The notes below the pieces were generated by a model. That model made no database searches. It was not told the origin of the DNA and saw only the letters and a list, made by a program, of their open reading frames with translations. From the NCBI GenBank assembly GCA_031424915.1, contig JANPII010000162.1:1-34970 (forward strand): a DNA stretch of 34,970 nucleotides, in the 5' to 3' direction. Each line of letters starts with the position of its first letter. Position 1 is the stretch's first letter. Positions 30,738-34,970 of this stretch are shown in pieces. The position numbers and the translations under genes were made by a program. The stretch comes from Pseudomonadota bacterium (GTDB taxonomy: Bacteria; Pseudomonadota; Alphaproteobacteria; Rickettsiales; Midichloriaceae).

Positions 30738-31268
30738 ATGTATATGCAGCATTATTCACATATCACCGACTTGGAACAAGTAAAATTAGAGGAAATGCGC
30801 TTAGAGAAGCTACCACTAGCTGGAACTCACTTAGGCAATATTATATCATATCTTGACGATTCAGAGGAAAATTTAGCACTTAGAATATTTGCAGGCTGTG
30901 GTATAGTCTTATTCTCACCCTTTATATTGGCTGACACCGCCTTTCAGTGCCTTACTTCCTCAGAAGAAGATATTAAAAGAAGCATAACAGAGCAAGCCAG
31001 GATCAACGTAATACATAGAAAAATAGCAGCAGAAAAAGAGGCAGGCATCAAAAAAGCAAAAGAAGAGGTGGATGCAGGTACCATCTTTGCATATACAACA
31101 TTCTTTTTAGTTGCAGGTGGAATTGGTGGCAGCATAATTTATGCCACCACTGCAATAGCTCTACAGTTGAATTCTTCTTTGCTGGTAGTAGAAATTACTG
31201 GCCTAGCCACGACCATTGGTATATTGAGCGGCATGGCAATTGGCGGTTTTGCAGTGGCCAACTTCTAA
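30738..31268 (+). CDS. hypothetical membrane protein with a C-terminal bilobed hydrophobic domain
   Basis: 176-aa ORF. AGGAGA at 30732-30737 abuts the first ATG and sits 6 nt before the second ATG (30744), so 30744 is the likelier start. One hydrophobic segment is near the N-terminus (IFAGCGIVLFSPFILA). A K/E-rich helix follows. The C-terminus then reads FAYTTFFLVAGGIGGSIIYATTAIAL-QLNSS-LLVVEITGLATTIGILSGMAIGGFAVA. Confidence 0.6.
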   Translation: MYMQHYSHITDLEQVKLEEMRLEKLPLAGTHLGNIISYLDDSEENLALRIFAGCGIVLFSPFILADTAFQCLTSSEEDIKRSITEQARINVIHRKIAAEKEAGIKKAKEEVDAGTIFAYTTFFLVAGGIGGSIIYATTAIALQLNSSLLVVEITGLATTIGILSGMAIGGFAVANF

Positions 31269-31272
31269 TCTG

Positions 31273-31350
31273 CTCTACTGAACTATGTTAAGAATAAGGT
31301 AGGGAGGAGCAGTTAAAAGTGGCAATTATAGGGTCATTACGAACCCCTTA
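31273..31350. repeat. single-arm (partial) copy of the 29048-29255 element
   Basis: The sequence ctctactgaactatgttaagaataaggtagggaggagcagttaaaagtggcaattatagggtcatt aligns by hand with the reverse complement of 29181-29255 (ctctaaataacctgagctatgtttaagagaaaggtaggagatgcttaaaagtgacaattatagcgtcatt). The alignment needs a 6-nt gap and a few indels, and similarity decays after gtcatt. Confidence 0.5.
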
Positions 31351-31471
31351 GTATCTTGTCATCAACTATGTTATATACTTTTTAGGGATTATTTTCAGGG
31401 GGCTCATTGCCGCCCCCTACGCGGCTTTGCAGCCGCTACCCTGCTAGGATATTTATAGAATCCTGATTATA

Positions 31472-32407
31472 TTATGGGGAATGCTCTTCCTTACTACCAG
31501 CGCCCTTATTAACCTTCCCACTAAAGATCATCGCATCGCGGATATGCTGGTGCACATCCTGCATACCAGAGGGAGAATGAGGCATGAGTACAGTATTAAG
31601 ATTGCCGTGCTTTCCCATTTCCTTCAGCATATCAAAGTACTGCATCATCATAATCAGGCTCATTACATCAGTAGTATTAGCACCGCGTACATGTTCTTTA
31701 AAATCATTCAATGAGTCCTTTAATCCTTCTACTACGGCCCGACGTTGACCAGCCATGCCTTTACCCTGCAGGATTTGGCTTTCTGCTTCTGCCTCCGCCT
31801 GCTTCACTTTAAGTATTTTCTCCGCCTCACCCCGTTCCATAGCAGCAACACGTAAACGCTGAGCTTCATTAATTTCATTCATAGCGGTCTTAACCCTAGC
31901 ATCAGGATTAATATCAACTACCAGTGCTTTCATAATGTCATAACCAAAGTCGTTCATTACCTCTTCTAGCTCCTCACGCACCGATCCTGCTATTTCGTCT
32001 TTTTTAGAAAAAACATCGTCCAGCTTGATTTTAGGGACCCGAGCCCGCACTACATCAAATACATATGCCTGTATCTGCTTTTCTGCGTCATCTAGCGTAT
32101 AAAACGCCTCATATATTTTCTGAGGTATAATACGATACTGCACGGCAGTTACAATCTTGACGAATACATCATCCAATGTTTTGGTCTCTACCTCTACATC
32201 AAGCTGCATCAAACGTAGGCTAACGCGCCCACTTATCTGTTCAATAAATGGAATCTTAAGATTCAGCCCAGGATTAGAAACACGTACAAATTTACCAAAC
32301 CGCTCTATCACAGCAGCTGATTTCTGTTCTACGGTAAAGAAGATCAATGGGCCACATATTATAAGACAAAACAATAAAACAGAAAAGATTAGTGCTTGTG
32401 AAAACAT
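31472..32407 (-). CDS. SPFH/band-7 family protein, HIR (hypersensitive-induced-response)-like subfamily
   Basis: 311 aa. It has an N-terminal TM anchor and an SPFH core. Long blocks match my recollection of plant HIR proteins, for example QIQAYVFDVVRARVPKIKLDDVF, VVDINPDARVKTAMNEINEAQRLRVAA..GEAEKIL and GQRRAVVEGLKDS. Confidence 0.88.
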   Translation of the reverse strand: MFSQALIFSVLLFCLIICGPLIFFTVEQKSAAVIERFGKFVRVSNPGLNLKIPFIEQISGRVSLRLMQLDVEVETKTLDDVFVKIVTAVQYRIIPQKIYEAFYTLDDAEKQIQAYVFDVVRARVPKIKLDDVFSKKDEIAGSVREELEEVMNDFGYDIMKALVVDINPDARVKTAMNEINEAQRLRVAAMERGEAEKILKVKQAEAEAESQILQGKGMAGQRRAVVEGLKDSLNDFKEHVRGANTTDVMSLIMMMQYFDMLKEMGKHGNLNTVLMPHSPSGMQDVHQHIRDAMIFSGKVNKGAGSKEEHSP

Positions 32408-32525
32408 AATTCCACCCTAAAAAGTTTAATATAATTTTAGGTTATCATAAATATTATGCGCACTCAATATTTTTATCCTCCCTATTGCGAGTTTTGAAAA
32501 TTATTAACAATTAATGCTTTTTTGC

Positions 32526-32554
32526 TTGTAAGTAACATTATTGTAATATATAAT
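32526..32554 (+). promoter_or_regulatory. candidate sigma70 promoter TTGTAA-N17-TATAAT upstream of the 32590 ORF
   Basis: The -35 lies at 32526-32531 and the -10 at 32549-32554, 35 nt before the ATG. The context is AT-rich, so the chance-match rate is high. Confidence 0.35.
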
Positions 32555-32589
32555 GTTCTCATATTAATCATAAATATATTGAGAAAAAC

Positions 32590-33648: not shown

Positions 33649-33662
33649 CCCTGCTAAGATAT

Positions 33663-33686
33663 AAAAGGGTTGCTAGCAGCCCTTTT
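33663..33686 (+). terminator. rho-independent terminator after the 32590-33648 ORF
   Basis: In aaaagggttgCTAGcagccctttt the stem is gggttg/cagccc (with one G-U pair), extended by A-U pairs, and the loop is ctag. A TTTTAT run follows. It lies 15 nt downstream of the stop codon. Confidence 0.6.
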
Positions 33687-33711
33687 ATAGTAAAACTTAG
33701 GACGAATTGGC

Positions 33712-33740
33712 TTGCATAATATATACAAACAAGGTATAAT
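33712..33740 (+). promoter_or_regulatory. candidate sigma70 promoter TTGCAT-N17-TATAAT upstream of the 33795 ORF
   Basis: The -35 lies at 33712-33717 and the -10 at 33735-33740, with a 17-nt spacer. It sits directly after the upstream terminator. Confidence 0.4.
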
Positions 33741-33794
33741 GTACCTATATCAGGTTATAATCCTAATAACATGCTCTTTAATTAAATTAAGATT

Positions 33795-34415
33795 ATGCAC
33801 ATGCAATATAAACAACAAGGATACGGCACAATCCCTAAATCTATTGCCGCTCTAACTATAGCAGGAGGCGCTACTCTTATAGGTATAAGCGCTATCACGG
33901 CCGCAGAAAGCGCAGCGTTGATGGCGTTATGCAGCACCTTTATTGCTATTGCTGGTGGGTGTATGCTTATAGGCTTTTCTTTTGTTAATAACCCAAGAAA
34001 AGAAGAAGTGACGGCAGAAGCAATTTATGGAGGACTATGTTGCCTCATTGGATTATTAATCGTAGCAGCAAGCATTGCTAGTAGCAAAGAAGGACATGGA
34101 GGGTGTGGTGGATTATGGTTTCCTCTATGGTTTACCTCAAGCCGATGCTTTACCGGCTTTTGCGGTATAATGGTAGGAATGGGAGGAGGAGCTGGAATAT
34201 ACTTGCTTTCTGAACACCTTGCTACAACAGCTCTAGGCGAAGCTCTTTCTACCTCTATTATAGTTCTGGCTTCTATCGCTTTGATTACCGCTACTGCTGG
34301 GGTGTGCGCTTCTGTAGGCTCTATTATAGTTGAGCATAGGCCTAATATATACGTCCATCAAACTAACGTATATAATAACACTTACGTACAACATAATGTT
34401 CAGTATGGATATTAA
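33795..34415 (+). CDS. hypothetical polytopic membrane protein with Gly/Cys-rich loops and a Tyr/Asn/Gln-rich tail
   Basis: 206-aa ORF. It has about 5 hydrophobic segments, starting with a bilobed pair (SIAALTIAGGATLIGISAITAA-ES-AALMALCSTFIAIAGGCMLIGFSFV). It also has a GHGGCGGLWFPLWF motif. The C-terminus is NIYVHQTNVYNNTYVQHNVQYGY. Confidence 0.65.
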   Translation: MHMQYKQQGYGTIPKSIAALTIAGGATLIGISAITAAESAALMALCSTFIAIAGGCMLIGFSFVNNPRKEEVTAEAIYGGLCCLIGLLIVAASIASSKEGHGGCGGLWFPLWFTSSRCFTGFCGIMVGMGGGAGIYLLSEHLATTALGEALSTSIIVLASIALITATAGVCASVGSIIVEHRPNIYVHQTNVYNNTYVQHNVQYGY

Positions 34416-34567
34416 GCTGATAATCGTCGGTTAAATTTATCAAAAAAATAATACTTAAAATCTAAGTTATTTTATAAACTTGATACACTATTTTCTTTAC
34501 TAAAAATAGTAATTGCGCTATAATATCAATTCAAATCTTACGATAACAAAATATTTGTTTAATTGAT

Positions 34568-34970
34568 ATGCATAACGTTGAAGGAAAAATTAGCTTAGAG
34601 AATTTGAGCACGGAAATAAGTTCTTTTCTCGTGGCTCGTACGGATTATGACTATCCGCAGCTAAAATTAAAAATACAGCAATATCAATGTACCTTAGGTG
34701 ATATACAAAGTGCTTACCCTGTAGAAGCAACACGTATAAAGCCTTTAATAGGTATTTTACAGCTCATAGCGGCTTGGGCTAGAGCTAAGAACGCTCTAGA
34801 TATTATAAAAGATAATACAAAAGAAAACGATGCTGAAGTTATGTTTTGCCTTCAGCTGCTAAATTTTGAACTAGAGGCATTTGAAAGTATAGAAATACTG
34901 GAAAAAGAGGAAAAAGAGGATATAGCGCAGCTTGAGAAAGAATGGATACAGATCATATTTGAGCTAAAAC
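34568..34970 (+). CDS. hypothetical protein, N-terminal 134 codons only (open to the window end)
   Basis: My own translation from the ATG at 34568 gives MHNVEGKISLENLSTEISSFLVARTDYDYPQLKLKIQQYQ...EKEEKEDIAQLEKEWIQIIFELK with no stop before 34970. A candidate promoter TTTACT-N17-TATAAT lies at 34496-34524. It is absent from the ORF track because it is truncated. Confidence 0.45.
   Translation, partial: MHNVEGKISLENLSTEISSFLVARTDYDYPQLKLKIQQYQCTLGDIQSAYPVEATRIKPLIGILQLIAAWARAKNALDIIKDNTKENDAEVMFCLQLLNFELEAFESIEILEKEEKEDIAQLEKEWIQIIFELK

Follow-up and report, generated by a model that had tools for sequence, protein, structure and literature searches.

Does the cluster of orphan genes that closes contig JANPII010000162.1 (assembly GCA_031424915.1) code for a family of Inc-like proteins made for the host interface, or does it bring together genes that have no common origin? 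The contig is 34,970 bp long and was analysed in its entirety (hereafter the window). Four plus-strand genes are concerned, namely gene A (30744-31268), gene B (32590-33648), gene C (33795-34415) and gene D (34568-34970), the last one being cut by the contig end 1.3 kb downstream of B, together with two candidates located elsewhere, gene E (5799-7562, minus strand) and gene F (9516-10538, plus strand). The original prediction, made from this DNA alone, had placed open reading frames (ORFs) at 30738-31268, 32590-33648, 33795-34415, from 34568 onwards, at 5799-7562 (minus strand) and at 9516-10538, and all of them were recovered at these positions. It had further proposed, from common composition and architecture and with no homology established by eye, that they may form an expanded family of membrane proteins, several of which show paired hydrophobic spans. 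Our analysis gives a different answer, as no mutual homology was found between A to F, which appear to share no ancestry and to constitute neither a gene family nor a demonstrated system. Instead, we estimate with a probability of about 0.5 that they represent a heterogeneous patchwork of fast-evolving, lineage-restricted accessory genes, partly phage-derived, lying at the junctions of housekeeping blocks.

Relatedness between the candidates was examined at the protein level. All-against-all BLASTP comparisons gave a best E-value of 0.5 and phmmer with the --max option returned nothing below 0.04 in a 7-sequence database, so that the expanded family finds no support. Likewise, a profile of the B family described below, used in hmmsearch against the other candidates, recovered only B, the other E-values being at least 0.28. 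Outside the window, word-index searches of 5.77 billion proteins with B, C and E returned self matches only, tblastn of A, F and D against the PLSDB plasmids and scans of IMG/VR with C and F gave no match, and F showed no match in Pfam or NCBIfam nor to any plasmid or viral sequence. A metagenome scan with the YebC protein encoded in the window retrieved relatives of at most 61% identity, the best match being at this value, and no candidate homologue. Moreover, among 134 bacterial loci that were compared, including SPFH and YebC loci, neither a relative of the candidates nor synteny with the region was observed. The absence of any recognisable domain, as first reported, was borne out, since the scans of all candidates against Pfam, NCBIfam and PHROGs gave 0 matches above the curated cut-off. 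Matches of candidates to RuBisCO_large, Oleosin, Ank_2 and DUF families were all sub-threshold and were set aside.

The candidates do not share a common architecture either. Topology was derived from hydropathy profiles, greedy segment picking and calculation of the apparent free energy of membrane insertion (dGapp), and the three agree. The dGapp values follow the model of Hessa 2007, which was checked on the length term (zero at 19 residues) and on the separation of known anchors from soluble proteins, and 1470 ORFs from bacterial loci were used as background. Three transmembrane (TM) segments are predicted in A, five in C, four C-terminal ones in E and two distant ones in F, while B and D display none. 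Three of the four clustered genes had been credited with hydrophobic segments, several of them paired as hairpins; tight hairpins are found in A and C, but neither in B, which shows a single marginal stretch and no hairpin, nor in D. In the same way, the recurrence of this design in E and F, which had brought the count to six genes, is retained for E with its two tight pairs of segments but not for F, the spans of which lie ~30-42 residues apart. Furthermore, two spans with a loop of less than 30 residues are present in ~12% of the background ORFs and, given this rate, six such genes in 35 kb would not in itself be beyond expectation.

What the candidates do have in common is their composition. 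Indeed, Ala, Gly, Ser and Thr together represent 46% of the candidate membrane segments compared to 30% in the background, in agreement with the small-residue richness noticed at first reading, and Leu and Phe represent 18% of the candidate hydrophobic segments compared to 28%. Due to this composition, the lowest dGapp of the candidates is less favourable than that of the bona fide anchors of the window, with -1.38 for A, -1.14 for C, +0.09 for E and -2.06 for F compared to -2.75 for YhdP, -2.53 for PBP1a and -3.44 for the SPFH protein. The corresponding values for the signal recognition particle (SRP) window are -0.56, -1.42, +0.35 and -0.37 for A, C, E and F, respectively, and, ranked against the multi-span ORFs of the background, the dGapp of these four proteins falls at the 68th-92nd percentile, which makes them less hydrophobic than most.

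A further likeness is found with glycine-zipper proteins, in which the GxxxGxxxG motif serves helix packing, as in the Pfam Gly-zipper and Rick_17kDa_Anti families and in channel-forming proteins. The strict motif is carried by A (GILSGMAIG), B (GGILGKTAGYMAG) and C (GIMVGMGGG) and reaches 5.4 per 1000 aa in these three proteins taken together compared to 0.77 in the background, a density that is ~7-fold higher. For the candidates, the Pfam glycine-zipper families gave no match to their hidden Markov models at E ≤ 1, and the motif alone defines no family or function.

Gene A and gene C are the two hairpin proteins of the cluster. In A, an AGGAG lies 7 nt before the ATG at 30744, at which the NCBI-derived product of 174 aa starts as well, and the alternative ATG at 30738 would give 176 aa. 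The protein displays an acidic N-terminus, a first TM segment (residues ~47-68), a charged helix (73-113) and a C-terminal hairpin (115-142/148-176). The hairpin originally quoted, IIYATTAIAL-QLNSS-LLVVEITGL, is indeed present, in a 62-residue hydrophobic block at the C-terminus (residues 115-176; 31080-31265, plus strand) that has QLNSS as its loop and its best dGapp of -1.38 at 115-142. A variant of A was found on an ENA contig from a second sample, with 93% identity and an intact frame, and differs by 5 synonymous and 11 nonsynonymous changes. The hairpin part shows 2 nonsynonymous for 3 synonymous differences and the N-terminal 111 codons 9 for 2, counts that are too small for statistics, and this distribution suggests a conserved hairpin next to a fast-changing soluble part. 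As for C, its 206 aa form a polytopic protein of ~5 hydrophobic segments (16-37, 40-62, 76-96, 106-139 and 150-179) that ends in an N/Q/Y-rich tail. The first two segments build the tight N-terminal hairpin (residues 16-62; 33840-33980, plus strand), in which the quoted ISAITAA-ES-AALMALC was recovered and which turns around E38-S39 within 2-4 residues. The tail itself (residues 180-206; 34332-34412) is of low complexity, rich in Asn, Gln, Tyr and Val, with the loose repeat YVHQTNVY/YVQHNVQY.

Gene E encodes 587 aa with a coiled coil at residues 134-207, a Pro/Ser-rich linker and four C-terminal hydrophobic segments arranged as two tight pairs, 466-518 and 525-583 (together nt 5814-6167). In a single-sequence AlphaFold2 (AF2) model, the coiled coil shows a predicted local distance difference test score (pLDDT) of 58-84. 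An ankyrin assignment for E was considered and rejected, as Ank_2 scored 15.7 bits against a cut-off of 27.3, the low-confidence AF2 model displays no ankyrin stack and BLASTP against a consensus ankyrin gave no alignment. The coiled coil of E and the acidic N-terminus of B are in line with the charged coiled-coil or acidic regions that had been described alongside the hydrophobic segments. In gene F (340 aa), the two spans are located at residues ~107-133 and ~164-192 (nt 9834-10091). Lastly, D is represented by its N-terminal 134 codons and has a helical, charged look with no hydrophobic segment in the 134 visible residues, hence it is an uninformative fragment. Considering these topologies, A and C, as well as E at its separate locus, are predicted integral membrane proteins whose helices consist mostly of Ala, Gly, Ser, Thr and Ile and fold back in tight hairpins, and they are most likely small self-associating proteins of the bacterial inner membrane or envelope.

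Gene B is of another kind. Its product of 352 aa comprises an acidic N-terminal region, a Pro-rich linker and a small-residue-rich, all-helical C-terminal domain. Residues 1-110 hold 28 D/E compared to 9 K/R and are disordered by prediction, and an identical B sequence was found on a Logan contig. The domain at residues 124-287 (32959-33450, plus strand) is homologous to phage accessory proteins. When 1.84 billion representatives were searched exhaustively with HMMER, it matched P0004 (201 aa) with 29% identity and a phmmer E-value of 1.1e-7, BLASTP between B and P0004 gave 4e-11, tblastn to two phage contigs gave 2e-8 and 1e-7, and the alignment of the family contains 42 invariant columns. 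P0004 lies on a 3.9-kb contig (Logan SRR30224782). A phage major head gene (phrog_334, E 1.7e-86) is divergently oriented to it, and a TPR gene is close by. A relative of 61% identity, ORF 3531-4136 of IMGVR_UViG_3300025972_000026, has a virion structural gene (phrog_3287) on one side and a DNA-ejection gene (phrog_4287) on the other. Both phage contigs show synteny with the complete podovirus MW202512.1, in which neither position holds a B-like gene, and this argues that the family behaves as a mobile, moron-like accessory gene, found at differing places in the structural modules of uncultured podophages. Both relatives also have low-complexity neighbours, a Gly/Met/Gln-rich 163-aa ORF (4786-5277 of the IMG/VR contig) and a partial Gln/Glu-rich ORF (3492-3872 of the P0004 contig); the former has no counterpart in the stretches of MW202512.1 that were examined and the latter no match there. 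Judging from these gene contents, the phage structural modules appear to be variable hotspots.

The resemblance between B and the P0004-like proteins extends across the conserved core of residues 124-287, at 27-30% identity, with the common motifs LY..(S/A)K, Y..I..AC and I..A.AE. B differs by an N-terminal acidic and Pro-rich extension of ~120 residues, a longer C-terminal tail, a more hydrophobic central helix and a position among chromosomal genes. No hydrophobic segment is present in the phage relatives (maximum Kyte-Doolittle hydropathy of 1.2-1.3), and the conserved domain is thus a soluble or peripheral helical domain. In B itself, the single marginal stretch at residues 231-251 has a dGapp of +1.1 and would not, by prediction, span the membrane. 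Searches with B among genome representatives, and tblastn with B and P0004 against GenBank phages, gave no match. Among PDB sequences, neither B and E nor the B-family profile had more than chance-level matches. A PDB match to the 'Pa223 ejection protein' (E 0.72) was not used.

The expression signals around B bear on its origin as well. A promoter-like site, TTGTAA-17-TATAAT (10/12), precedes the gene at 32526-32554, and a stem-loop of 13 bp with a 4-nt loop and A-tract/U-tract arms follows it at 33660-33689, both on the plus strand, so that the claim that at least one gene of the cluster has its own terminator finds support. The 61-nt stretch that contains this stem-loop folds at -17.8 kcal/mol (z = -2.1); a simple consensus scan did not call it, and it is likely an intrinsic, possibly bidirectional terminator according to the folding. 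The GC content at third codon positions (GC3) of B, 0.23, is the minimum of the window. Considering its phage-only relatives, its promoter-like site, its terminator and this low GC3, the last three being counted as a further likeness to the phage family, the reading that suits B best is that of an accessory gene derived from a phage, in which an acidic disordered N-terminal region precedes a helical domain akin to podophage accessory genes. The kinship of B with phage genes is the one concrete new finding of this analysis, and the family so far carries no annotation.

The patchwork reading is also in keeping with what is known of the organism. Its AtpD protein scores best with mitochondrial beta subunits (783 bits), then with a bacterial chain that we take to be that of Paracoccus (767 bits), while E. 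coli- and Bacillus-type chains reach ~690 bits. This proximity to mitochondrial and Paracoccus-type beta subunits designates an alphaproteobacterium, as had been supposed from the start. In a clustering of ~15 billion proteins at 90%, AtpD is a singleton, and so are F and the product of a seventh orphan gene, G; since even AtpD is alone at this level, a high fraction of orphans is to be expected in the lineage. The best match of the SPFH protein among 185,579 species-representative genomes has 75% identity. Judging from these comparisons, the organism is a deep-branching alphaproteobacterium without a close sequenced relative. Compared to the ORFans of deep-branching bacteria in general, the candidates are alike in lacking homologues, in their short to medium length, in their lower GC3, in their position between conserved blocks and in their enrichment in membrane and low-complexity segments, and no decisive difference is seen.

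Some observations weigh against this view. A, C, E and F are below the anchors of the window in hydrophobicity, so that a location in the inner membrane is not assured, and no phage gene was found beside B within the contig. In addition, the gene that splits the cluster, a conserved SPFH/Band 7 gene outside the orphan set (31472-32407, minus strand; Band_7 E 1.1e-32), has relatives that are mostly from intracellular lineages, which is a weak hint of a host-associated organism. Its closest relatives (66-75% identity) come from metagenome-assembled genomes labelled Francisellaceae, Paracaedibacteraceae, Rickettsiales, Coxiellaceae and Legionellales. This mixture of intracellular lineages of two classes, next to an AtpD of clearly alphaproteobacterial type, could reflect gene exchange among host-associated bacteria. 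Synteny with A-D was present in 0 of 53 related SPFH loci. The idea that the Band 7 gene is a partner of A or B, in the manner of SPFH-NfeD pairs, was discarded, as A is convergent and B divergent to the Band 7 gene and neither is conserved beside SPFH genes elsewhere.

According to another explanation, A, C and E, to which F might be added, would act in the manner of Inc proteins or of TM effectors of type IV or type III secretion systems (T4SS, T3SS). They would be exported by a system whose genes lie elsewhere in the genome, with their moderately hydrophobic hairpins in a host-derived membrane and their charged or coiled-coil parts toward the host cytosol. We consider it unlikely. The criterion used to predict Inc proteins is two hydrophobic spans with a loop of less than 30 residues (Dehoux 2011), and the Inc-like bilobed domains initially reported are confirmed in A (loop of 5 residues), C (16-37/40-62) and E (two pairs), the loops being of 2-6 residues throughout, but do not exist in B, in the visible part of D or in F, the loop of the latter being of ~30-42 residues. 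The loop of A, QLNSS, is uncharged and rich in turn formers, as in Incs (Dehoux 2011). Like chlamydial Incs, A, C and E show a hydrophobic block of 47-62 residues split by a very short turn and possess neither recognisable domains nor homologues; in A and E, coiled-coil or charged segments come in addition. The Inc family is nevertheless described as Chlamydiae-specific, whereas the bacterium studied here is an alphaproteobacterium, and the Inc hairpin is near the N-terminus whereas those of A and E are at the extreme C-terminus, which leaves no room for a hydrophilic C-terminal signal. B and D, moreover, are outside this architecture altogether, and C looks like an ordinary 5-TM protein.

Hydrophobicity does not decide the matter. 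TM substrates of T3SS and type IVB secretion systems have an intermediate hydrophobicity, with a lowest dGapp of ~-3 to +2 and an SRP-window value of ~-1.5 to +0.5 (Krampen 2018), and A, C, E and F, which are weaker than the window anchors, fall within this range, although it is a necessary and not a specific feature, since ordinary multi-span proteins often contain weakly hydrophobic helices as well. The candidates further resemble the TM effectors of Legionella and Coxiella in their fast evolution, their lineage restriction and their predicted individual transcription. TM domains are stated to be present in about a third of the effectors of T4SS (PMC12981334). The orphan status of the candidates and the 9 nonsynonymous against 2 synonymous differences in the soluble part of A would fit an effector role, but the substitutions are too few for a significant ratio of nonsynonymous to synonymous rates. 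Furthermore, the 35 kb contain no gene of a secretion system, and none of the proteins could be credited with a eukaryote-like domain once the ankyrin hint in E had failed. A fuller version, in which a probably host-associated alphaproteobacterium independently evolved A, C, E and perhaps F as unrelated, rapidly diverging TM effectors, with small-residue, glycine-zipper hairpins tuned to avoid the bacterial membrane and to enter that of the host, and recruited B there, seems to us quite unlikely.

The phage link of B raises a further possibility, namely that B, C and D are the edge of a degraded prophage or mobile island that continues beyond the contig end and carries morons, for instance for superinfection exclusion or envelope modification, in which case the three genes would be cargo rather than innovations of the chromosome. 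The only relatives of B are phage accessory genes, and the GC3 of B, C and D (0.23, 0.30 and 0.29) is the lowest of the window, in which housekeeping genes range from 0.32 to 0.41. One gene per promoter-like site, the terminator after B and the break of the contig inside D would be in keeping with such an island, assemblies often breaking at repeated or mobile DNA. On the other hand, the window holds no integrase, tRNA, attachment repeat or phage structural gene, C and D gave no match in PHROGs, IMG/VR or the phage databases, and the similar genes A, E and F are found at other loci with no phage link. On balance, we hold this origin for the three genes together to be doubtful, and retain the patchwork, of which B is the phage-derived part.

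Finally, the candidates are real protein-coding genes. The housekeeping genes of the window served to train a 3-periodic second-order Markov model, with leave-one-out for these genes themselves, and the annotated frame was preferred over the other five in A-F, with a margin of 0.05-0.11 nats/base compared to 0.08-0.13 for housekeeping genes. Moreover, the small-residue composition is encoded by a high GC content at the first and second codon positions and an AT-rich third position (0.55/0.47/0.23 in B), and therefore runs against the mutational bias. That some or all of the ORFs are non-genes or decaying pseudogenes in an AT-rich spacer, as could be argued from the lack of homologues for C, D, E and F, the very low pLDDT of the AlphaFold2 models (38 for the single-sequence model of B; 43.5 for residues 1-460 of E) and the chance frequency of promoter-like sites, is highly improbable in view of these margins, which are within or just under the housekeeping range, of open ORFs of 174-587 codons that are not expected by chance at 36-41% GC, of the intact frame of A in its diverged variant, of the distant homologues of B and of the Ala/Gly-rich composition.

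With regard to transcription, each gene had been credited with a near-consensus -35/-10 pair, and this is correct for B and for D (TTTACT-17-TATAAT, 10/12, at 34496-34524, plus strand), whose sites are plausibly spaced from the start codons, but not for A and C, in which a perfect TATAAT is preceded by a -35 element of only 3/6. Besides, 12 promoter-like sites of sigma-70 consensus were counted in the region compared to 14.3 +/- 3.2 in shuffled sequence, thus showing no enrichment. Given that the intergenic gaps are of ~150-200 nt and that A is flanked by genes of the opposite strand, it is plausible from the gene arrangement that A-D are transcribed separately. Between A and the convergent SPFH gene (31380-31475), two GC-rich hairpins, GGGGGC...GCCCCC and GCGGCT...AGCCGC, were observed with z ~ -3 on both strands; their predicted folding is consistent with a bidirectional terminator. 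Two apparent repeats around the candidates were set aside. The 14-mer CCCTGCTARGATAT, found downstream of both A and B, is a post-hoc chance match whose similarity stops at its ends, and a 22-nt inverted match between the upstream regions of A and C is of the same quality as many chance pairs between coding sequences.

The remainder of the window consists mainly of housekeeping genes. These comprise sucAB, a lysyl-tRNA synthetase of class I, a YhdP-like gene, an atpHAGDC cluster without atpBEF, the genes of PBP1a and ribonucleotide reductase, dxr, an epimerase gene, ruvC, yebC and the SPFH/Band 7 gene, and neither RNA families nor tRNA genes were detected in the window. The seventh orphan, G (1195-1608, minus strand; 137 aa), carries two membrane segments, one N-terminal and the other weak, as well as a tail rich in Cys (CRSCKCFWC ... 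CNEC), and resembles a membrane-anchored zinc ribbon. Two other genes deserve mention. One encodes a HipA-family toxin kinase (7855-9051, minus strand; HipA_C E 2e-46), for which the sole antitoxin candidate upstream is a helix-turn-helix-like ORF of 54 codons (9168-9332, minus strand) that does not abut hipA, so that hipB may be degraded. The other, an AAA_14 + DUF4143 ATPase gene (15576-16775, plus strand) whose insertion separates the YhdP-like gene from the atp operon, is a typical accessory gene and has a GC3 of 0.31, low like that of the orphans.

Several repeats were seen in the intergenic regions of the window. An element of ~75 nt occurs in two copies of ~81-83% identity (12276-12328 and 16819-16871, with flanks at ~12270-12350 and ~16815-16895) directly 3' of plus-strand stops, those of lysS and of the AAA_14/DUF4143 gene, and may be a repeated terminator or an element of the repetitive extragenic palindromic type. 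A 25-nt inverted repeat (29052-29076/29228-29252; 92% complementarity) flanks a 151-nt stretch in the spacer that separates the epimerase gene from ruvC and has the look of a miniature inverted-repeat transposable element, and a second one of the same length (17015-17039/17089-17113; 88%) lies downstream of atpC.

As it stands, this locus illustrates that a genome without sequenced relatives shows many orphans and that hydropathy alone can make an orphan membrane protein resemble an Inc. Should an export of A, C and E into a host membrane be demonstrated, these proteins would represent a convergent, non-chlamydial way to decorate a host-derived compartment and would offer an entry point to the biology of an unsampled alphaproteobacterial lineage. 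Meanwhile, the link between B and the accessory genes of podophages provides a modest lead on gene flow from phage to host and on a protein family that has so far been left unannotated.

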